Below, piece by piece: positions 1,696 to 16,551 of a stretch of 16,551 nt of DNA; position 1 is the first letter of the stretch; each line of letters opens with the position of its first letter. This stretch comes from a virus. The stretch is taken from the UHGV virus genome UHGV-0128496; one strand, 5' to 3'. The notes beneath the pieces were generated by a model that was not told the origin of the DNA, did no database searches, and saw nothing but the letters and a program-made list of their open reading frames with translations. The position numbers and the translations under genes are program-made.

Positions 1696-2274
1696 TTAGT
1701 TGTTGCTGGTGGTTGGGATTAGTTTCTGCCAAATCGCTGAAACATATTTCGCCTGGTGGCGGGCATCAGCCAGTGCGTTATGTGCAACCCCATCAAATGG
1801 CATATCACGCTTAGGATCGAAACCTACAACTCTGCCTAATGTGACGATGGTTCTGACGTCGTGATCATTCCAAAATTGCCACGGGCAAACCTGGCCGGCA
1901 CGCTCATATGCGCCGCGCAATATAACGTTGTCGAAAGTAGCTCCATTGCCCCAAACTTTTAAATATTTAGGGTTATCAGAATGCCGATTAATGAAATGGC
2001 TCAGTTCAGATAGGGCAGATGATATCGGCATCGCATCATCAACACAGATTGCTGATCGTGCTTCTGAGCTTTGTCTTAACCACCACAGAATAGTGTCACC
2101 GTCCGGCACCGCTCCCTGCTCCATAGCGCTTTCAAGGTTAACGGCGCTGTAAAACTCCTGACCCAGTTCACCGCTTTGCGGATCGAAGAACACGGCACCT
2201 ATGGAGACGATAGGGGCATTTGGTTTTTTGCCCATGGATTCGAGGTCGATCATTAAATTGTTCACGTTATACAT
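1696..2274 (-). CDS. DEDDh-family 3'-5' exonuclease (DnaQ-like)
   Basis: Exo motifs visible: LMIDLESMG (D-x-E), WGNGATFDNVIL, GVAHNALADARHQAKY (H-x4-D). I place the start at the internal ATG at 2274 (MYNVNN...), preceded directly by AGGAGA; the longer track ORF (to 2466) would overlap the upstream gene by 200 nt. Confidence 0.75.
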   Translation of the reverse strand: MYNVNNLMIDLESMGKKPNAPIVSIGAVFFDPQSGELGQEFYSAVNLESAMEQGAVPDGDTILWWLRQSSEARSAICVDDAMPISSALSELSHFINRHSDNPKYLKVWGNGATFDNVILRGAYERAGQVCPWQFWNDHDVRTIVTLGRVVGFDPKRDMPFDGVAHNALADARHQAKYVSAIWQKLIPTTSNN

Positions 2275-3049
2275 TCTCCTGCTGCGGTGCTGCTGCCTGC
2301 TCAGCTGCCATAGCTGCATCGATTTGCTCACGTAATTTGGTCGCGTGATAATCGTCATCTTCATCCGTGATGGTCTGCGACCAGAAAATGCTATGGCTTC
2401 CGTAAACCATAGGCTCACGAACATCAACGGTTTTAGATACCAGCCAGTCCATGCGGAGTACGTCATCCGGAGTTACCGGAGAGTTGCCAGCCTGGAGAAT
2501 AGATTTCAGCGCTGCCCTTGGCATTGCCGACCAGGCAAGGAATACGTCTGGCCTGTCGACATCTTCTGTCGGGAGAGTGTTTTCTATTTCGTCCAGCGCA
2601 TCACTTAGCTTCTGAAATGCGTCGTCTGGAACAACGTGGCACTCTTCGCCATCAACATCTTGCTGACAGCTATCATCTGCGAGTTCGAATGCGGCCCAGC
2701 AAACATTGAGCAGCATTTCAATAACGCGACGGTGTTCTGCTGTTACGCAATTCTCCGGCACTACCTGCGCTGGCGTGGCAGTGTAGAGCGGAATTACCGC
2801 ATCTCCCATTGGCTGAGACAGGCACTTAAGGTGAAGATCACCCATCTTTGCATAAGCCAGAGTTTCCTCAGCGGCATAAAGCACAGGCTCAGCATTCAGG
2901 ACTTCATCAATCACCTTCACAGCATCAGCCATTGCGTAGCCGAGATTACCGCCGTCGCTTTGTGCTGCTGCGTTGCTGAGTATTTCGCTTATCTGGTGCA
3001 GGCGATCGAGTGATACAGGACCGTGCGCCGGGTGGTTGTTAGTTGTCAT
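2267..3049 (-). CDS. Hypothetical acidic phage protein (260 aa), function unknown
   Basis: Long ORF in the coupled early-left operon; AGGGAGGA RBS 7 nt upstream of the ATG at 3049. Asp/Glu-rich with cysteine clusters; no motif I can assign. Confidence 0.6.
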   Translation of the reverse strand: MTTNNHPAHGPVSLDRLHQISEILSNAAAQSDGGNLGYAMADAVKVIDEVLNAEPVLYAAEETLAYAKMGDLHLKCLSQPMGDAVIPLYTATPAQVVPENCVTAEHRRVIEMLLNVCWAAFELADDSCQQDVDGEECHVVPDDAFQKLSDALDEIENTLPTEDVDRPDVFLAWSAMPRAALKSILQAGNSPVTPDDVLRMDWLVSKTVDVREPMVYGSHSIFWSQTITDEDDDYHATKLREQIDAAMAAEQAAAPQQENV

Positions 3050-8795: not shown

Positions 8796-9130
8796 ACAGT
8801 GTAAACCGATTCAGACCAGCTAAGCAATTCAGATGTTTGCCGCTGGTGGGTAAAGATGCCCAGTTCGGCTATGTGGAAATCATAAATAACGCGGCTGATG
8901 GAGGCAACTACCAGCCAGCAGACTTGATGGTAGAAGCATTTGTTCAGATGAACGAGAAGGGGCGCGAGGAATGGCTGAAGTTAACCGGCGGTTCAGAGAT
9001 CACTACGGAGTTCCCGTCAGAGTTGTCCGCTGGGAGCCAGATACACAGCGCGTTATATACCTTCGCGAAGGGTACGATCATGAGTGCTTCAGCCCTCTTG
9101 AACAATTCCAGCGTAAATTTACAGAATTAA
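8792..9130 (+). CDS. Hypothetical early protein (112 aa)
   Basis: Its ATG overlaps the upstream stop (ATGA), so it is coupled within the early-right operon. No recognisable motif. Confidence 0.5.
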   Translation: MNSVNRFRPAKQFRCLPLVGKDAQFGYVEIINNAADGGNYQPADLMVEAFVQMNEKGREEWLKLTGGSEITTEFPSELSAGSQIHSALYTFAKGTIMSASALLNNSSVNLQN

Positions 9131-9139
9131 AGGACGACC

Positions 9140-9994
9140 ATGAGCACTAAATTAACCGGTTACGTATGGGATGCATGCGCTTCGTCAGGCATGAAGTTAT
9201 CCAGCGTTGCCATCATGGCGCGTCTGGCAGACTTCAGCAGTGATGAAGGGGTTAGCTGGCCTTCCATCGCTACCATCGCGCGCCAGATTGGTGCTGGTGA
9301 GAGCACGGTTCGTACAGCCATATCTCAGCTGGAAAAAGATGGTTGGTTAACCCGCCAGCAGCGCCGTAAAGGCAACCGAAATGCATCGAACGTTTACCAG
9401 CTCAATGTTGCGAAATTGCAGGCTGCTGCCTTTTCTCACCTGTCAGATTCTGACGCATCAAAATCTGATGCCTCAAAAACAGACGCGTCAAAATCTGAGG
9501 CATCAAAAAACGATGAAAAAGGCGGTTTTCACCCGTCAGAATCTGGGGGGGATCCGTCAGTAAATACAACTACTGATCCATCAGTTAAAAAACCTTCTTG
9601 TCCGGTTGCGCCGCAACCAGACCCTGAAGTGATGATCACCGATAACGCCATCCTGGTTCTGAATCATCTGAACCTGGTTAGTGGCTCACGATACCAAAAA
9701 TCAAAAACTTCTCTGGAAAACATCCGTGCTCGTCTGCGTGAAGGTTACACCGTTAGCGACTTACAGCTGGTGATCGACCTTAAGCATGAGCACTGGAACG
9801 GCAATGACGTGCAGTACCAGTACATGCGTCCTGAAACGCTCTTCGGTCCGAAAAAATTTGAAGGTTATCTGCAAAGCGGGATCCGCTGGGACAAGAAGGG
9901 GCGGCCACCGCGTGACAGCTGGGGTGAAAAGAAACATGACCCGATGAAGTTCGGTCCGGTTGATAGCAAGATTCCAGAGGGGTTCAGAGGATGA
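9140..9994 (+). CDS. Replication initiation protein (lambda-O-like; N-terminal winged HTH, conserved phage C-terminal domain)
   Basis: N-terminus VAIMARLADFSSDEGVSWPSIATIARQIGAGESTVRTAISQLEKDGWL is typical of HTH_36-type initiators. A low-complexity linker (DASKS x4) precedes a conserved C-terminal domain (VLNHLNLVSGSRYQ ... LFGPKKFEGYLQ). The position after the cro/cII module matches a replication gene. Confidence 0.7.
   Translation: MSTKLTGYVWDACASSGMKLSSVAIMARLADFSSDEGVSWPSIATIARQIGAGESTVRTAISQLEKDGWLTRQQRRKGNRNASNVYQLNVAKLQAAAFSHLSDSDASKSDASKTDASKSEASKNDEKGGFHPSESGGDPSVNTTTDPSVKKPSCPVAPQPDPEVMITDNAILVLNHLNLVSGSRYQKSKTSLENIRARLREGYTVSDLQLVIDLKHEHWNGNDVQYQYMRPETLFGPKKFEGYLQSGIRWDKKGRPPRDSWGEKKHDPMKFGPVDSKIPEGFRG
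9452..9511 (+). repeat. Four tandem 15-bp iteron-like repeats inside the initiator gene (putative origin)
   Basis: gacgcatcaaaatct / gatgcctcaaaaaca / gacgcgtcaaaatct / gaggcatcaaaaaac, with partial copies on both sides. Each has a near-palindromic GAYGCRTC core and an A-tract. Lambda ori likewise lies as iterons inside the O gene. Confidence 0.45.
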
Positions 9995-11325
9995 TGGAAA
10001 ATAAATACTGCCGTGCACTGGCTGAACTCCGTTCAAAACCAGCACACGAGTTGAAAGAGGTCGGTGATCAATGGCGCACTCCGGATCTGTTGTTTTGGGG
10101 GATCAATGCGATGTTCGGCCCTCTGGTGTTGGACCTTTTTGCCGACGACAGCAACGCGAAGTGCCCAGCATGGTACACGGCTGAAGATAATGCCCTGACG
10201 CAGGATTGGTCAGAGCGGCTGGCAGAACTCGGTGGTGCCGGGTTTGGCAACCCGCCTTACAGCCGCTCTCAGTACCACGACAAGCAGGCCGTTACCGGAA
10301 TGACCCACATCATTAACCACGCTATGGCCATGCGAGAAAAGGGTGGTCGGTACGTTTTTCTCATTAAGTCTGCGACGAGTGAAACGTGGTGGCCGGAAGA
10401 GGCAGATCACGTCACATTCATCCGTGGCCGAATTGGTTTCGATCTTCCTACATGGTTCGTGCCGAAAGACGAAAAGCAGCAGCCCACCAGCGCATTTTTT
10501 GCTGGCGCTATCGTGGTCTTCGACAAAACATGGCGGGGTGAGCGTTTCAGTTACATCAACCGCACCGACCTGGAGGCCAAAGGCCGTGCTGCGATGTCGC
10601 TGGCCCAATTTGCCGTGGGAAGAACGCAAACTGATGCGGCGCCAGAGCTGGACGCTGAGGTAGTGCCGAAGAAATCAGAGGCAGAACTGCCATTAACCCA
10701 AAAAGCCATTCTGGAAACCAGCGGTGTAGAGGCTTGGGCCTGTGTTGTCGCGGCGTTCGGCGAGAAAGACGAGTACACCTTCAGCGAGTCAAAGTTTGGT
10801 CATACCTGGGCTGCCGACTCTCTGGAAAACCCTGAATTTACCAATGTTTCACCGCTGACGATCGACAGAGCGAAAAAGCTGATCAGCGAGAGCATCCTGG
10901 TGGGTGTTAATGCATGGCTGGAAACATTGCCCTTTGATAGCGATGACGTGAAACAAGACATGTCAGAGCGGTTACGCACGGTTGCCGTTGAGTCTGCGAA
11001 AGAATACGGCATTAACCACAGTGAATTCATCGCGACCATGGAAAGCCTGGATAAAGCCAAATGGTCAAATATTCGGGGGATCCGCGCCCATGTCCGTGAG
11101 ACGCAGGAATCAAAGGACAAGGCGTTAAACGAATCGCGCGTTTGGCCTCTTGAGGTTGGACTGGTGTTTAACCAGATTGAAGGGGCTGACGCTCTACCTG
11201 TTTCGCAGCAGAACAAGCTGAAAGCCAATATCAACCAGCTGTGGCTCGAACGTATGCCGACGAGTGAAATTATCACGACCGCTGGTGGTCTCTTCAACAG
11301 CATGCAGGGGGCCGTCAATGCGTGA
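9991..11325 (+). CDS. Phage Dam-family N6-adenine DNA methyltransferase with about 240-aa C-terminal extension
   Basis: N-terminal about 200 aa carry WRTPD and the catalytic FGNPPYS (NPPY) motif of phage Dam-type N6A MTases. Its ATG overlaps the initiator stop (ATGATG). Residues about 205-444 have no motif I recognise. Confidence 0.8.
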   Translation: MMENKYCRALAELRSKPAHELKEVGDQWRTPDLLFWGINAMFGPLVLDLFADDSNAKCPAWYTAEDNALTQDWSERLAELGGAGFGNPPYSRSQYHDKQAVTGMTHIINHAMAMREKGGRYVFLIKSATSETWWPEEADHVTFIRGRIGFDLPTWFVPKDEKQQPTSAFFAGAIVVFDKTWRGERFSYINRTDLEAKGRAAMSLAQFAVGRTQTDAAPELDAEVVPKKSEAELPLTQKAILETSGVEAWACVVAAFGEKDEYTFSESKFGHTWAADSLENPEFTNVSPLTIDRAKKLISESILVGVNAWLETLPFDSDDVKQDMSERLRTVAVESAKEYGINHSEFIATMESLDKAKWSNIRGIRAHVRETQESKDKALNESRVWPLEVGLVFNQIEGADALPVSQQNKLKANINQLWLERMPTSEIITTAGGLFNSMQGAVNA

Positions 11326-13255
11326 AATTATCGTTGATAACTTTGCTGGTGGCGGCGGCGCGAGTACCGGCATTGAACTGGCGATCGGGCGTAGCGTGGA
11401 TATCGCTATCAACCACGACGAAAACGCTATTGCGATGCATAAGACGAATCACCCTGACACGCTGCATTATTGCGAGTCGGTGTTTGACGTTGACCCAAGC
11501 GCAGCCACCAGCGGTAAACCTGTCGGTCTGGCCTGGTTTAGCCCTGACTGCCGCCACTTTTCCAAGGCGAAGGGCGCTAAGCCGGTTAAGAAAGAGATTC
11601 GCGGGCTGGCGTGGATTGTCCTGCGCTGGGCGCTGGCAGTACGTCCCCGCGTCATGATGCTGGAGAACGTCGAAGAGTTTAAGACATGGGGCCCGCTGCT
11701 GGATGAAGAATTACGCCCGGATCCTGAGCGTGCTGGCGAAACATTCGAGGCATTTGTCGGCATGCTGTCGACGGGGATCGCGGCGAATCACCCTGCGCTG
11801 GCTGAGGTTTGTGAATTCCTTGCCATTGAGCCGCACGGCCAGCAGGCGCAACAGCTGATCGCCGGGCTTGGTTATGAGGTTGATTATCGGGAGCTGCGCG
11901 CATGTGACTACGGCGCGCCGACGATCAGAAAGCGTTTCTTCATGGTCATGCGCTGTGACGGCCGCAAGATTCATTGGCCTGAAGCGACTCATGGGGATCC
12001 AAAATCACTGGAAGTACAAAGCGGCAAGCTGGCGCCATGGCGTACCGCGGCGGAGTGCATTGACTGGAATATCCCGGCCCGGTCCATCTTCGACCGCAAA
12101 AAGCCGCTGGCGGAAAATACGCTCAAACGTATCGCGCGCGGCATCCAGCGCTTTGTTATCGAAAGCGCATCACCTTTCATCGTGAAGTGTAACCACACCA
12201 CGACGAAAGGAGGTTATGACTGTTTCCGCGGGCAATCGTTGTTAGAGCCATTGCAGACCATCACTAAAAAGCATGGCTACGCACTGGCGGTACCGCATCT
12301 TACTAAATTCCGCACCGGGGCCACCGGGCAGCCAGTGACCGAGCCGGTACCAACTGTCACCGCTGGTACGTCGGCGCGCCCGGGCGGGAATGGGCATGCG
12401 CTTGGCGTAGTTGAGGCCGCCCTGACACCGTTCCTGGCTGGCAATGGCGGCAGTGAGTACCAGGCAAAGCCGCGCCCGCTGGATAAACCCGCTCATACAA
12501 TCCTCAAGCAGTCCCGCGCGTGCGTGGTTGCGCCGGTCATCGCCCGCCAGTTTGGAGCCAGTGTTGGGCACAGGGCTGACGAACCGAGTGCGACGATTAC
12601 TGCAGGTGGTGGCGGTAAGTCGCAGCTGGTAACTCCAACACTGATCCAGATGGGGTACGGCGAACGCCCAGGGCAAGAACCGCGTGTTCTTCAACTGAAT
12701 AACCCGCTCGGCACGGTCACTGCTGGTGGTAATAAGTTTGCAACGGTGAGCGCGTTCCTGGCGAAGCACTATGGTGGGAATTACACGGGGCCGGGTGTTG
12801 GTATGGATGAGCCTGCCCACTCAGTCACTACTGTTGATCACCACGCGGTAGTTGCGTCGCACCTGGTGAAGCTGCGCGGAACCTGCCGCGACGGTCAGAC
12901 CATGGATACACCTATGCCGACGATTACCGCTGGTGGCCAGCACGTTGGCGAGGTCCGGACATTCCTCGAAACCTACTGCGGTGATAGCGAGGATGAATGG
13001 CTGGTGACGATCGAGGGGGTTAAGTACCAGATCGTCGATATCGGAATGCGCATGCTGCAACCGCATGAGCTTTATAAGGCGCAGGGCTTCCCTGACGGCT
13101 ACGTTATCGATCAGGACTATCGCGGCAATCGTTACGCCAAAGACAAGCAGGTAGCGCGCTGTGGTAACGCAGTACCGCCGCCGTTCGCTCGTGCGCTGGT
13201 AGAAGCAAATCTTCCTGAATTATGTGCAAATCAAAAGGCGGGTGCAGCCGCCTGA
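11318..13255 (+). CDS. DNA cytosine-5 methyltransferase (large, repeat-containing variable region)
   Basis: Motif I FAGGGGAS, an ENV motif (MLENVEEF) and C-terminal CGNAVPPP; the Cys motif reads SPDCRHFS rather than canonical PCQ. Start taken at the ATG at 11318 (MREIIVDNFAGGGG), overlapping the Dam stop; the track ORF extends upstream in the same frame. The region between the catalytic and C-terminal motifs holds about five P-x-x-T-[VI]-T-A-G-G repeats. Confidence 0.8.
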   Translation: MREIIVDNFAGGGGASTGIELAIGRSVDIAINHDENAIAMHKTNHPDTLHYCESVFDVDPSAATSGKPVGLAWFSPDCRHFSKAKGAKPVKKEIRGLAWIVLRWALAVRPRVMMLENVEEFKTWGPLLDEELRPDPERAGETFEAFVGMLSTGIAANHPALAEVCEFLAIEPHGQQAQQLIAGLGYEVDYRELRACDYGAPTIRKRFFMVMRCDGRKIHWPEATHGDPKSLEVQSGKLAPWRTAAECIDWNIPARSIFDRKKPLAENTLKRIARGIQRFVIESASPFIVKCNHTTTKGGYDCFRGQSLLEPLQTITKKHGYALAVPHLTKFRTGATGQPVTEPVPTVTAGTSARPGGNGHALGVVEAALTPFLAGNGGSEYQAKPRPLDKPAHTILKQSRACVVAPVIARQFGASVGHRADEPSATITAGGGGKSQLVTPTLIQMGYGERPGQEPRVLQLNNPLGTVTAGGNKFATVSAFLAKHYGGNYTGPGVGMDEPAHSVTTVDHHAVVASHLVKLRGTCRDGQTMDTPMPTITAGGQHVGEVRTFLETYCGDSEDEWLVTIEGVKYQIVDIGMRMLQPHELYKAQGFPDGYVIDQDYRGNRYAKDKQVARCGNAVPPPFARALVEANLPELCANQKAGAAA

Positions 13256-13269
13256 TATGGAGAAATAGC

Positions 13270-13962
13270 ATGAATCAGTTAACCGCTAAGGGTGTTGTGA
13301 CAATGTCCAGCCGTGAAATTGCCAGGCTGGTGCAGAGCAAACATGGTGATGTGAAGCGCTCAGCTGAGCGCCTTGCATCTGCTGGTATTTTAACCGCGCC
13401 GTTGGCGCACACCCCCTACACACACCCGCAAAACGGGCAAACCTACGAGGAGTATTGGTTTAACAAACGTGATTCTCTGGTGATCGTCGCCAGGCTGTCG
13501 CCAGAATTTACCGCCGCTGTTGTCGATCGCTGGCAAGAGCTGGAGAACAGCCAGGCCGTAAGTGTCCCGCAAACATTGCCGGAGGCATTACGTCTCGCCG
13601 CGGATCTGGCCGAGCAGAAAGAACAACTCAGCCAGCAGTTAGCCGCTGCCGCGCCGAAAGTTGAGTTTGTCGATCGATATTGTACTGCCAAAGGCTCAAT
13701 GTCTTTCCGCCAGGTGGCAAAGCTGTTGCAGGCCAAAGAGACCGATTTCCGCTTGTTCCTCATTGAGAGCGGCATTTTGTACCGGCTCAGTGGAGTGCTG
13801 ACACCTCGGCACCAGCACATTGCTGCCGGGCGGTTTGAAGTGAAAACTGGCACTACGAGCGAAACAAACTACGCCTTTAGCCAGGCACGTTTTACACCCA
13901 AAGGCATCGAGTGGATCGGCGGCCTGTGGACGGCACACATCGCTAAGGGGCATGCCGCGTGA
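13270..13962 (+). CDS. Rha-family regulator / antirepressor (Rha N-terminal domain plus KilA-C/ANT-like C-terminus)
   Basis: N-terminus MSSREIARLVQSKHGDVKRSAERL resembles the Rha domain; C-terminal EALRLAADLAEQKEQL ... KVEFVDRY resembles ANT/KilA-C. GGAGAAA RBS 5 nt before the ATG at 13270. Confidence 0.65.
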   Translation: MNQLTAKGVVTMSSREIARLVQSKHGDVKRSAERLASAGILTAPLAHTPYTHPQNGQTYEEYWFNKRDSLVIVARLSPEFTAAVVDRWQELENSQAVSVPQTLPEALRLAADLAEQKEQLSQQLAAAAPKVEFVDRYCTAKGSMSFRQVAKLLQAKETDFRLFLIESGILYRLSGVLTPRHQHIAAGRFEVKTGTTSETNYAFSQARFTPKGIEWIGGLWTAHIAKGHAA

Positions 13963-15020
13963 GAGGACTGTTTACAGCCGAGACTGTTCCGCGCCTTGGG
14001 CTTGTGCTGTTAAAGCCGGGTAGCGAACTGATGTCTTTGTTTCAACAGGGGCGTGTGCTGGTGGAGCCTCAGCCAAAAAGCATGGCTGGGCTTCCGTCGG
14101 GGCTCGTCCCTGATGCCCGGCAGCCGCTGGCAGAAGATAAGTCCCTCGAGGAATTCTTCACCGACGAGAGAGTTATCCGTGCAGCAGGCGGTTTGTCCGG
14201 GTTGGAATCCTGGCTAGAGCGTAACGTGAAGGAATGCCAGTACCCGCACACTAATTATCACCATCATGAGCTGGTAACGATGCGACATCCCCCTGGATCA
14301 ATGTTGCTCTGTTGGCATTGCGATAACCAGCTGCGCGAGCAAACCACCGCGGCGCTGGCAGAACTGGCCCGGCGTAATCTCATTAACTGGCTGATCAGTT
14401 CTATCCTGTCTTCGCTTGGCTACAACAACGAGCGTGAACTATCCCTCGGTGAATTGTGCTGGTGGGCCGTTTACTCAGGCATTGCTGATGCAATCACGGA
14501 AAGGATGGCCCAGCATGCGCTTCGCTTACCGGATGAGCCGTTTTTATCCGTATATCGCGAAAGTGACATTGTGCCGATGCCACCGACAAAAAACATTTTG
14601 CAGAAGAAGGTCACCCCTGCGGTCACGGCTGCGCATTTAAAGCATGGAACAAATCAGGAAGTGGCCTATGACCAGCCACAGGTTCTGGCTCTGCATGCGG
14701 ATCCTGAATCCCCTGAATCATTCATGTTGCGCCCAAAACACCGCAGGTGGGTGAATGAGGACTATACCCGGTGGGCTAAAACCCAGCCCTGTGAAGGTTG
14801 CCGGCGGCCAGCGGATGATCCACACCATGTCATTGGTCACGGCATGGGCGGTACCGCCACTAAAGCCCACGATTTGTTCGTGATCCCTCTGTGCAGAGAG
14901 TGTCACGACAAATTACATGCTGATGTTGCAGCGTTCGAGAAAAAACACGGTACCCAGCTGGAGCTGCTATTCCGATTTATGAATCGAGCGCTGGCGATCG
15001 GCGTAATAACAAAAGCGTAA
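13959..15020 (+). CDS. DUF968-like prophage protein with C-terminal HNH-like zinc motif
   Basis: GTG start overlapping the Rha stop (GTGA), with AAGGGG 8 nt upstream. C-terminus PCEGCRRPADDPHHVIGHGMGGTATKAHDLFVIPLCRECHDKLH has an HNH-like arrangement (CxxC ... HH ... CxxCH). I recall DUF968 (YdfU-like) proteins sitting next to Q in Qin-like prophages. Confidence 0.5.
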   Translation: MRGLFTAETVPRLGLVLLKPGSELMSLFQQGRVLVEPQPKSMAGLPSGLVPDARQPLAEDKSLEEFFTDERVIRAAGGLSGLESWLERNVKECQYPHTNYHHHELVTMRHPPGSMLLCWHCDNQLREQTTAALAELARRNLINWLISSILSSLGYNNERELSLGELCWWAVYSGIADAITERMAQHALRLPDEPFLSVYRESDIVPMPPTKNILQKKVTPAVTAAHLKHGTNQEVAYDQPQVLALHADPESPESFMLRPKHRRWVNEDYTRWAKTQPCEGCRRPADDPHHVIGHGMGGTATKAHDLFVIPLCRECHDKLHADVAAFEKKHGTQLELLFRFMNRALAIGVITKA

Positions 15021-15041
15021 TTGTATGGAGCGCTGAGCATA

Positions 15042-15734
15042 ATGAATTTACAAGAACTGGAATATACGCGGATTGAACTGCGCCGCGCGCTGGCGGATTT
15101 ATCAGGATCGACAAAAGGACAGCTGCAGGCGTTCAGTGAGCATCCACCAGCAGATAAGAATAAATACCCCCGGCACCATCCTGAAATCGTCATGGAGGGT
15201 GGGGAAGGTTGTGGGTCAAAGGTTGTAACAACGCTGGCCACTCCATTTTATGTTCTTGAGACAAGGAGCCGTCGTCGACCTTTGCCGCCTATTAAAGATA
15301 CGGAGTTCGCTTGTTCAGCATGGCGTCGTTCGGTCAATGGTCTGGGTGAGCATTTGCAGGCATGGGTGCGGTACTGCTATGGGTATGACCTTACTTTCCG
15401 GTACCAGACATTGATGTGCCAGCACGTGTGGGAACAGTTTCAGCGTCAGCATAGCGGCAAAAAAATACAGGGCCGCGTCACTAAAAAACTGGTAGGGCTT
15501 GTCTGGCTGGCGGCGCAAGAAGTTGCTGCCTCGCGTAATAACGATACCTATCAGGAGTATGCTGGTGCAGCTCTGGCGCGCATGGTCAGCGTTGAGCGTT
15601 CCACCTGGCTCAGAGTGTATTCAGGCCACTGGGCGGCTTTCAAAGCGTCGTTTGCTGAAATGGATAGCCAGGCACTAAGCGAAATTTTGTCACGGTACGA
15701 AGAGTACCAAGAACTGAAAGTGGCGGAAATGTGA
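15042..15734 (+). CDS. Late-gene antitermination protein Q-like
   Basis: Last gene of the early-right operon, immediately upstream of a promoter-plus-terminator pair. Size and sequence fit my recollection of enterobacterial Q-like proteins. Start placed at the ATG at 15042 (MNLQELEY...). Confidence 0.5.
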   Translation: MNLQELEYTRIELRRALADLSGSTKGQLQAFSEHPPADKNKYPRHHPEIVMEGGEGCGSKVVTTLATPFYVLETRSRRRPLPPIKDTEFACSAWRRSVNGLGEHLQAWVRYCYGYDLTFRYQTLMCQHVWEQFQRQHSGKKIQGRVTKKLVGLVWLAAQEVAASRNNDTYQEYAGAALARMVSVERSTWLRVYSGHWAAFKASFAEMDSQALSEILSRYEEYQELKVAEM

Positions 15735-15792
15735 GGTAACTTTCACTAACTCCCTCAAATGGGCTTGCAAAATGCAACAAAATGAGCCATAT

Positions 15793-15821
15793 TTGAAGCT
15801 AATTTTATATTTTGTCATAAT
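15793..15821 (+). promoter_or_regulatory. PR'-like late promoter candidate
   Basis: -35 TTGAAG (15793-15798), 17-bp spacer, -10 CATAAT (15816-15821), just upstream of a terminator. An alternative is TTGCAA (15765-15770) with CATATT (15788-15793). Confidence 0.4.
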
Positions 15822-15831
15822 TATATCTAAC

Positions 15832-15853
15832 CTCGCCTCGGCGGGGTTTTTTT
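15832..15853 (+). terminator. tR'-like rho-independent terminator
   Basis: GC-rich hairpin cctcgcc-tcg-gcgggg followed by T7 (15847-15853). Its position directly after Q and a promoter matches the lambdoid 6S-RNA/tR' arrangement. Confidence 0.6.
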
Positions 15854-15932
15854 ATGCCTTTTGTATCTAAAGCTTGATGCAAAAATGAACCAGAGTTATC
15901 TGTGTGTCACACGATAAAAAAGGGGAAAAGGC

Positions 15933-16124
15933 ATGCAAAATCAACCTTATATGACAGAAGAAGCAAAAGCGGTTTTTAACGAACTCAGCGCTTCACCAGC
16001 GACAGCTGGGGAAATTGCACAGAATACGCACCTAAGCCGAGAGAAATGCCAGCTCATCCTGACGCAGCTGGTTATGGCGGGGTTATCAGATTACCAGTTT
16101 GGATGTTACAAACGCCTCCACTGA
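15933..16124 (+). CDS. Small hypothetical protein (63 aa), possible winged-helix DNA-binding
   Basis: AAGGGGAAAAGG RBS directly upstream of the ATG at 15933. The segment ATAGEIAQNTHLSREKCQLILTQLVMAGL is HTH-like. It is the first gene after tR'. Confidence 0.4.
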   Translation: MQNQPYMTEEAKAVFNELSASPATAGEIAQNTHLSREKCQLILTQLVMAGLSDYQFGCYKRLH

Positions 16125-16274
16125 AGGGGGCATTCTGCTGTGGAAATGGGCGGCTGGTGGGTGTTGTAGCACCCAACCAGCCATTAGCTCATGCTTTCAG
16201 GTCACAAGCTAACCAAGGCCCACTGCTTTAGCGCAAAAGCATAGTGAGCCTATCAGAGTTACGCTTACGGATCT

Positions 16275-16530
16275 ATGAAAAATACTGTAAATATAAACAG
16301 TGTTGAGCTTATCAACGCTGACTGCCTGCAATACCTCGCTACCCTCCCAGATAACACCATCGACCTTATTGTTACGGATCCGCCTTATTTTAAGGTGAAG
16401 CCGAACGGCTGGGATAATCAGTGGAACGGTGACGCCGACTATCTTCGATGGCTTGATATGTGTCTTGCCCAGTTCTGGCGAGTGCTTAAGCCTGCCGGCA
16501 GCCTGTATTTGTTTTCAGGTCACCGACTTG
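16275..16530 (+). CDS. DNA methyltransferase, N6-adenine/N4-cytosine beta-class (5' fragment, truncated by contig end)
   Basis: Hand translation: MKNTVNINSVELINADCLQYLATLPDNTIDLIVTDPPYFKVKPNGWDNQWNGDADYLRWLDMCLAQFWRVLKPAGSLYLFSGHRL, with the DPPY catalytic motif near the N-terminus. No stop codon before the adapter junction at 16531. Confidence 0.7.
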
Positions 16531-16551
16531 AGATCGGAAGAGCACACGTCT
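16531..16551. other. Illumina TruSeq adapter (sequencing artifact, not biological)
   Basis: The last 21 nt, agatcggaagagcacacgtct, exactly match the start of the TruSeq adapter AGATCGGAAGAGCACACGTCTGAACTCCAGTCA. Confidence 0.9.

Follow-up and report, generated by a model that had tools for sequence, protein, structure and literature searches.

Orphan DNA methyltransferases are a main route by which phages escape restriction. An ordinary C5-cytosine methyltransferase carries one element of the form 'P-x-x-T-[LIV]-T - loop - hydrophobic strand' ahead of its motif IX and, to our knowledge, only the SPbeta-like phages of Bacillus widen their protection by stringing recognition domains together. 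These Bacillus phage C5-methyltransferases gain several specificities via tandem recognition domains, and M.SPRI, M.Phi3TI, M.Rho11sI, M.SPBetaI/MtbP, and M.H2I belong to this multispecific group (PMC12707154; PMC8936443). Here we analyse a C5-cytosine DNA methyltransferase of 645 amino acids (aa) encoded in the virus genome UHGV-0128496 (16,551 nucleotides (nt), the whole of which is called the window below), in which seven related modules stand in tandem ahead of motif IX. The same design principle is found here in an unrelated, far larger family, whose thousands of clusters at 50% identity take in enterobacterial prophages, actinophages, and a haloarchaeal virus. As an overall explanation we tentatively favour an active orphan methyltransferase with ordinary chemistry and an expandable modular recognition domain.

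The enzyme class given in the initial annotation of the open reading frame (ORF) was confirmed. Pfam family PF00145 matches the protein in three stretches (74 bits, curated cut-off 22, E = 1.9e-20), and motifs I (FxGxG), VI (ENV), VIII (RxR), IX, and X (GN[AS]V) follow one another in canonical order. The NCBIfam superfamily model TIGR00675 'dcm' scores 53.2 bits, below its cut-off of 100.65. Among proteins of solved structure, the CP-933R prophage enzyme (3g7u) and DNMT1/MET1 are closest in sequence. The protein has the two-domain C5-methyltransferase fold, with the catalytic domain modelled by AlphaFold2 (AF2) at a predicted local distance difference test score (pLDDT) above 90, and both the catalytic fold and the order of the motifs are those of the monospecific enzymes M.HhaI, M.HaeIII, and 3g7u. 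Proteins 99-100% identical to it were found, among them the homolog P0001.

The repeat lies in the target-recognition region, as had been proposed, between motif VIII (RKRFF, aa 204-208) and motif IX (from aa 578). These motifs are ~370 aa apart (aa 208 to 578), so that the variable region is enlarged as in the multispecific group; the same length had been assigned to the interval between ENV and GNAV, which is actually ~497 aa. When anchored on the T-x-T core and aligned along the flanks, aa 306-562 resolve into seven contiguous tandem modules of 30-47 aa, each with a P-x-x-[TS]-[IV]-[TL] core and ~30 conserved positions (consensus SVDEPLPTVTAGNHHALVAAFLVKYYGGSV). A module profile built without the query finds all seven (15.4-33.6 bits, independent E-values 1e-6 to 2e-12), whereas 200 shuffles of the region reach at most 3.3 bits. 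The initial annotation had counted five copies of a T-[VI]-T-A-G-G module. All the strings behind that count are present (PTVTAGT at aa 344, ATITAGGGG at 425, GTVTAGGN at 465, SVTTVD at 502, PTITAGGQ at 533), but two modules, R1 (LQTITKK) and R3 (AHTILKQ), had been overlooked, and the string itself is part of a longer unit. It is real nonetheless: T[VI]TAG occurs four times in the protein, and among 100,000 shuffles of the whole protein 411 contained a single copy and none contained two. A possible half-module, SPFIVKCNHTTTKGG, precedes the array and consists of the strand and tail part only; in other members the same tail comes after a full T-x-T module.

Relatives of the protein were collected by an exhaustive search of representatives of clusters formed at 50% identity, with 8,619 hits at E <= 1e-3 and 2,589 at E <= 1e-30. 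The query and the 150 best representatives carry between 1 and 12 modules each (mode 5-8); the mycobacteriophage enzyme Dori gp72 and the halovirus phiH enzyme Dcm5 have three each. Clustering of 1,004 modules from the query and the representatives yields ~10 types, which differ mainly in the loop after T-x-T and in the tail. Type C is recognised by AGG-H-x-EVRAFL-KYYG, type E by TLIQTGYGERPGQ-PR, type B by AFLAKHYGGNY, type A by HLVKLRGTCRDG, and type H by EPLHTITTKDRFGLVT. The query reads D-J-x-E-B-A-C in these terms. Its array ends on a type H remnant whose T-x-T part is absent, as it is in 45 of the 131 sequences (query and representatives) in which motif IX could be located, so either this loop is non-essential or another module substitutes for it. 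Judged from the sequences, no single module is indispensable.

Copy number varies even among close relatives. The 120 clusters at least 78% identical to the query comprise 32 with six modules, 40 with seven, 46 with eight, and two with nine, and the lengths of these proteins fall into matching classes between 605 and 695 aa. Their architectures are DJxEBAC, DJxBAC, DJEBAC, DJxEBAAC, and DJxEBGAC, in some cases with H at the end. Whole modules are gained and lost in register: homolog P0026 lacks exactly R3, P0037 fuses the loop of R4 to the strand of R5, and P0002 and P0036 each have one additional module (of type G and type A, respectively). Short members keep A-C-H or C-H, which suggests that the array grew N-terminally, with local duplications, from an ancestral A-C-H core. 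At the DNA level the only repeats are matches of 18-19 nt at the codons for T-I/V-T-A-G-G. The duplication of the modules is therefore old, and recent duplication or phase variation through DNA tandem repeats was rejected on the same ground. The repeat region is clearly under purifying selection and not drifting, on small counts: between the window and phage Eeyore it differs by nine synonymous changes and one non-synonymous change (ratio of non-synonymous to synonymous polymorphism, pN/pS, 0.04), compared with 20 and two in the catalytic core (pN/pS 0.03).

A connection to the Bacillus phage enzymes is seen at the end of the array. A profile of type H together with the C-terminal motifs aligns with M.SPbeta (MtbP) at 14.6 bits, beginning at the first conserved residue of the module and running from EPAFTVNTIDRHGV... 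through RKLSPLE to GNS, collinear with the last target-recognizing unit of that enzyme; a second core of M.SPbeta, LSPTLTTMGGG, lies further upstream. The modules would therefore be paralogs of the element that marks each target-recognizing unit in the Bacillus phage enzymes. Trautner and colleagues are said to have put those units, in 1996, at ~40 aa. The module core also appears to resemble the single conserved 'T-L/V' element of monospecific recognition domains, such as Thr250-Leu251 of M.HhaI, but there a domain of ~80-100 aa contains a single copy, as against seven copies in ~260 aa of the query. It is likely, on this evidence, that the array is the recognition domain and that it was built from paralogs of the canonical target-recognition core.

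The resemblance to multispecific phage enzymes claimed in the initial annotation therefore holds for architecture and fails for family membership. Query and Bacillus enzymes are alike phage-borne orphan C5-methyltransferases with an enlarged region between motifs VIII and IX, contiguous units of ~40 aa with a P-x-x-T-[LIV] core, and a terminal unit collinear before motif IX. However, BLASTP against MtbP gives short local matches only (best E = 0.004), and the query belongs to a separate sequence family in which the units are clear paralogs with a conserved order of types, their number is polymorphic among near-identical alleles (seven in the query and up to 12 in relatives, as opposed to two or three active units), and motif IV reads P-D-C and not P-C. 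Multispecificity is demonstrated for the Bacillus enzymes, whereas the likeness of the query is one of architecture.

The gene is phage-borne, and no restriction endonuclease partner was found among the neighbouring genes in the window, making it an orphan. An orphan gene in the early-right operon of a lambdoid phage fits the anti-restriction role that had been suggested for it, and the position in that operon implies that the enzyme would be made upon infection or induction and not in the lysogen. From its family, its context, and precedent, the protein is most probably expressed early and, as an orphan methyltransferase, shields phage DNA from restriction. The precedents are M.EcoGII, a prophage methyltransferase of broadened specificity that is silent in lysogens (PMC5778455), and the tandem recognition domains of the Bacillus phage enzymes (PMC12707154; PMC8936443). 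Cys78 would attack C6 of the target cytosine, with the methyl group coming from S-adenosylmethionine (AdoMet), and methylation of the replicating phage DNA would allow progeny to escape restriction in the next host. We hypothesize that the seven paralogous copies, each contributing a long strand and a Gly/Thr-rich loop, form an expandable recognition domain in which the set of modules decides which and how many sequence contexts are methylated, the loops serving as alternative recognition elements like those of the multispecific Bacillus phage enzymes, and that in-register recombination between modules would change the repertoire. In structural terms, each module may tentatively be regarded as one long strand for a sheet plus one flexible Gly/Thr-rich loop, perhaps ordered only on DNA. 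That module content sets multiple or alternative specificities is possible, and we slightly favour it over a single composite domain because the modules are homologous to genuine recognition units, because types are present or absent among near-identical alleles, because the terminal loop is dispensable, and because an arms race with restriction systems would reward such variation.

Several observations weigh against the idea that module content sets specificity. In homologs less than 50% identical, the N-to-C order of the types is strongly biased (D before E 51:7, E before B 84:9, B before A 100:13, A before C 95:0, C before H 24:0), and each type, loop included, is conserved across hosts of different phyla. 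Conserved order and conserved types are what would be expected of one ordered composite domain, and less so of cassettes tuned to different restriction systems. The general module profile scores a non-significant 0.1 bits on the internal units of M.SPbeta, matches solved structures only by chance (E > 1), and the Pfam C5-methyltransferase profile reaches no module; in chimeras of a module and the C-terminal tail, made to compare each module with the canonical motif of that profile, the PF00145 match always begins at profile position 260-270 and never covers a module. AF2 predicts aa 294-557 of the query mostly at pLDDT below 50 despite an alignment coverage mostly of 0.6-0.95. In the model of the three-module homolog P0261 (mean pLDDT 84, module region 55-75, T-x-T loops 40-60), the long strands of successive modules appear paired (pLDDT ~70-75), which suggests that modules pack together rather than act alone. 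The array also has a net charge of only +2 over 272 aa, with loops that are short and Gly-rich. Finally, no methylation data were found in the literature for any family member, and high-performance liquid chromatography (HPLC) revealed no modified bases in the DNA of halovirus phiH, a virus with a distant member of three modules (PMC6210493).

Many of these observations are equally at home in an alternative that we consider possible, at somewhat less than even chances, namely that the seven modules fold into a single ordered beta-structure with one specificity, whose target may be long or degenerate. Gain or loss of a module would then merely lengthen or shorten an open-ended sheet and change specificity little or not at all. 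The family-wide order of the types, the conservation of sequence within each, the retention of an A-C-H core by minimal members, and purifying selection on all modules are in keeping with this, as is the fact that the long hydrophobic strands of modules A and C in P0261 (aa 355-362 and 386-392, pLDDT ~70-75) are the best-predicted parts of that array. However, types x, E, extra A, G, and H come and go among enzymes at least 78% identical, which is frequent for a neutral change, the canonical terminal T-x-T loop is dispensable in about one third of the members, and AF2 does not predict a common fold of the array with confidence, not even at positions with an alignment coverage of at least 0.9.

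A link between module content and specificity could also be taken further, to a fully combinatorial form of recognition in which each of the ~10 module types is a self-contained mini recognition domain for one sequence context, with one catalytic core drawing on up to a dozen of them in turn. We consider this doubtful. Unequal recombination between modules would in that case change, within a short evolutionary time, which sites are protected, and the proteins would be hyper-multispecific cytosine methyltransferases, far exceeding the two to five specificities that Bacillus phage enzymes are known to have.

A cytosine methyltransferase of relaxed or almost no specificity, with the modules as generic DNA-binding or processivity elements that keep the enzyme on DNA and with short Gly-rich loops that read little of the sequence, appears improbable. 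Such an enzyme would be the cytosine counterpart of M.EcoGII, a non-specific adenine methyltransferase of an E. coli O104:H4 prophage that is silent in the lysogen (PMC5778455). Both are prophage-encoded orphans with a presumed anti-restriction role through broadened specificity, but M.EcoGII is an N6-adenine (beta-class) enzyme of unrelated sequence, has no repeat array, and its non-specificity is demonstrated. The flexibility predicted for the array, the Gly/Thr/Ala-rich loops with few typical base-reading side chains, and a location under prophage repression, as for toxic enzymes of broad specificity (PMC5778455), would suit this explanation. The near absence of net positive charge is unusual for non-specific DNA binding, though, type-specific loops are conserved, and HPLC showed no bulk modification in the DNA of phiH, even though this virus has a distant member of the family (PMC6210493).

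The catalytic core gives little reason to expect unusual chemistry. The initial annotation had correctly read motif IV as SPDCRHFS, a departure from the canonical form, and had left room for a modified catalytic mechanism. The motif aligns with GPPCQGFS of 3g7u, with Asp in place of Pro beside the catalytic Cys and no Gln; the Pro-Cys dipeptide of PCQxFS is thus missing while the Cys itself is present and invariant. The departure is not peculiar to this gene, since 110 of 151 sequences, made up of the query and the 150 best cluster representatives, have SPDC[KTR]HFS and a distant haloarchaeal virus member has P-E-C-T-H-F-S. In a family alignment of 109 sequences, G11, G13, G14, C78, S82, E116, N117, V118, R204, R206, and N617 are invariant. 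Because the motif is family-wide and the catalytic residues are kept, SPDC is a family signature and not evidence of a changed mechanism. The same cysteine is the target of inteins, which typically occupy the most constrained catalytic positions. Seven homologs of ~930-1110 aa (P0131, P0189, P0209, P0198, P0215, P0221, P0255) carry an intein inserted exactly between SPD and Cys (junctions SPD|CFPAGT...VVHN|CKHFS), equivalent to positions 11546/11547 of the window between the Asp77 and Cys78 codons, so that the catalytic Cys is the first residue after the intein (+1 extein). Hint domains were found in all six intein homologs scanned against Pfam, four of which also have LAGLIDADG matches. Fused Dam-Dcm proteins were rejected as an explanation of the long homologs (907-1113 aa), since six of the seven scanned carry inteins at the catalytic Cys; the remaining one, of 907 aa, has no extra domain.

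A further set of residues, H33, N44, H45, and H50 (invariant) and H80 (nearly so), is specific to the family, lies in the cofactor-binding half (AINHD, NHP, C-x-H-F-S; positions 11318-11560 of the window), and is without counterpart in motifs II-IV of canonical C5-methyltransferases. Between motifs VI and VIII there is also a lineage-specific insertion, STGIAANHPALAEVCEFLAIEPHGQQAQQL (aa 150-180, positions 11765-11857), whose residues are present in only ~20% of family members and which is modelled as helices with high confidence.

From these sequence features, a C5-methyltransferase with canonical chemistry is very likely. The phage enzyme CmoX (PDB 8yf3) is a DNA cytosine C5-carboxymethyltransferase that uses carboxy-S-adenosylmethionine (Cx-SAM) through an Arg replacing the Asn of motif X (R350 in SpCmoX), has the motif SPPC, and is linked to cmoA, the gene for Cx-SAM synthase (PMC12783734). 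A CmoX-like activity was rejected because the query has SPDC and an invariant Asn617 in place of SPPC and Arg; retention of this Asn indicates ordinary methyl transfer. A scan of neighbouring ORFs, among them some but not all of the small ones in the window, against PHROGs and Pfam turned up none that is CmoA-like. E. coli has a CmoA of its own. Altered chemistry (another alkyl donor or a non-methyl base modification) or loss of activity, as might be signalled by the change of a near-universal Pro-Cys to P-D-C and of the following Gln to Arg, Lys, or Thr, by the family-specific invariant residues of the cofactor-binding half, and by the low TIGR00675 score, is therefore very improbable, given that Cys78, ENV, RxR, and GNAV are all invariant, that Asn617 is kept where CmoX needs Arg, that the nearby ORFs scanned showed neither a CmoA-like gene nor another modification gene, that P-D-C is the norm across a family of thousands, and that both the targeting of the Cys by inteins and strong purifying selection point to a working active site. 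The bifunctional Dmt of phage P1, which likewise pairs Dam and Dcm activities, was considered as closest relative and rejected; its C5 half has GTPCQAFS and no modules, and BLASTP with that half gave no match at E <= 1e-3.

The family is routinely annotated, and multispecific C5-methyltransferases of phages are already known. We found no description of the repeat array, its copy-number polymorphism, the ordered types, the SPDC family, or the source phage in the literature, which was searched without REBASE or most subscription journals. If module content does set specificity, it would account for the ability of temperate phages to keep up with diverse host restriction systems, provide a set of small portable readers of cytosine contexts for methyltransferase engineering, and offer a direct handle on the old question of sequence encoding in C5-methyltransferase recognition domains. 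Should the array prove to be a single domain, it would still be a repeat architecture that we have not found described for a DNA-recognition domain.

Table 1. Positions in the window of the methyltransferase gene, its partner gene, the catalytic motifs, and the modules of the array.
Feature	Position (nt)	Strand	Residues (aa)	Sequence	Remarks
Upstream partner gene, phage Dam-type N6-adenine methyltransferase	9991..11325	+	444 aa		PF05869 on aa 19-199
Methyltransferase gene	11318..13255	+	645 aa		Start overlaps stop of Dam-type gene
Motif I, AdoMet-binding loop	11336..11359	+	7-14	DNFAGGGG	G11, G13, G14 invariant
Motif IV, catalytic Cys78	11540..11563	+	75-82	SPDCRHFS	Family variant P-[DE]-C-x-H-F-S of P-C-Q-x-F-S
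Motif VI	11663..11671	+	116-118	ENV	Family-invariant
Motif VIII	11921..11941	+	202-208	TIRKRFF	T202, R204, R206 invariant
Possible leading half-module (strand/tail part only)	12170..12214	+	285-299	SPFIVKCNHTTTKGG	1.1 bits, weak
Module R1, type D	12233..12328	+	306-337	...EPLQTITKKHGYALAVPHLTKFRTGATG (LQTITKK)	25.8 bits
Module R2, type J, long loop	12329..12469	+	338-384	...EPVPTVTAGTSARPGGNGHALGVVEAALTPFLAGNGG...	15.4 bits
Module R3, type ambiguous	12470..12568	+	385-417	...DKPAHTILKQSRACVVAPVIARQFGASVG (AHTILKQ)	23.3 bits; gone in P0026
Module R4, type E	12569..12688	+	418-457	...DEPSATITAGGGGKSQLVTPTLIQMGYGERPGQEPRV	27.2 bits; joined with R5 in P0037
Module R5, type B	12689..12805	+	458-496	...NNPLGTVTAGGNKFATVSAFLAKHYGGNYTG...	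33.6 bits
Module R6, type A	12806..12895	+	497-526	DEPAHSVTTVDHHAVVASHLVKLRGTCRDG	30.9 bits
Module R7, type C	12896..13003	+	527-562	...DTPMPTITAGGQHVGEVRTFLETYCGDSEDEWL	27.5 bits
Terminal type H remnant and beta-hairpin into motif IX	12998..13045	+		WLVTIEGVKYQIVDIG	Strands 562-565 and 568-571, pLDDT 76-97
Motif IX	13049..13093	+	578-592	RMLQPHELYKAQGFP (begins RMLQPHE)	
Motif X	13163..13174	+	616-619	GNAV	Asn617 invariant; Arg at same position in CmoX

The window represents the early region of a temperate lambdoid phage; over bases 9000-16551 it matches Escherichia phage Phi06_2987 S (KM389288.1) at 100% identity and phage Eeyore at 96%. Its minus strand encodes, in this order, an integrase, an Rv2179c-like exoribonuclease, recombination proteins, and a CI-like repressor. 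On the plus strand, Cro- and CII-like regulators and an O-like replication initiator (9140-9994) lead into the Dam-type gene, whose product is named 'phage N-6-adenine-methyltransferase' in RefSeq. The C-terminal extension of this protein (~245 aa) has no Pfam match, and an IITTAGG string at its C-terminus was examined as a candidate module and rejected. The ATG of the C5-methyltransferase gene overlaps the stop of the Dam-type gene (ATGCGTGA), and an AGGGGG stretch resembling a Shine-Dalgarno sequence lies 5' of this ATG. From the overlap and this stretch, the two methyltransferases are probably translated as a coupled pair, on an early-right transcript whose timing would follow from its position. 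Downstream on the plus strand are an antirepressor gene (ant, 13222-13962), which overlaps the last 34 nt of the methyltransferase ORF in a different frame (13222-13255), a gene for a DUF968/HNH protein, and a Q-like antiterminator gene. The DUF968/HNH-type protein (353 aa, phrog_96, 13959-15020 on the plus strand) sits between ant and Q in a nin-region position and cannot be recognised as a restriction partner for either methyltransferase.

In E. coli the C5-methyltransferase gene is rare: 13 of 5,426 complete genomes carry it, annotated simply as 'DNA cytosine methyltransferase'. An unannotated two-piece protein 50% identical to the query over 99% of its length is encoded at 29227-30543 of KY197768.1 ('Bacillus phage phi105'). 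This match is unexpected for a Bacillus host and may reflect a frameshifted gene or a mislabelled record. Among distant members, the 5' neighbour in phiH is a nucleoside-triphosphate pyrophosphohydrolase (L005, 1-290), and in Pseudomonas phage pAN (L006, 1130-2442) a phosphohydrolase and a 3'-5' exoribonuclease precede the methyltransferase. The window also has an Rv2179c-like 3'-5' exoribonuclease (1696-2466, minus strand), on its other arm, and a recurrent association of these genes is possible.

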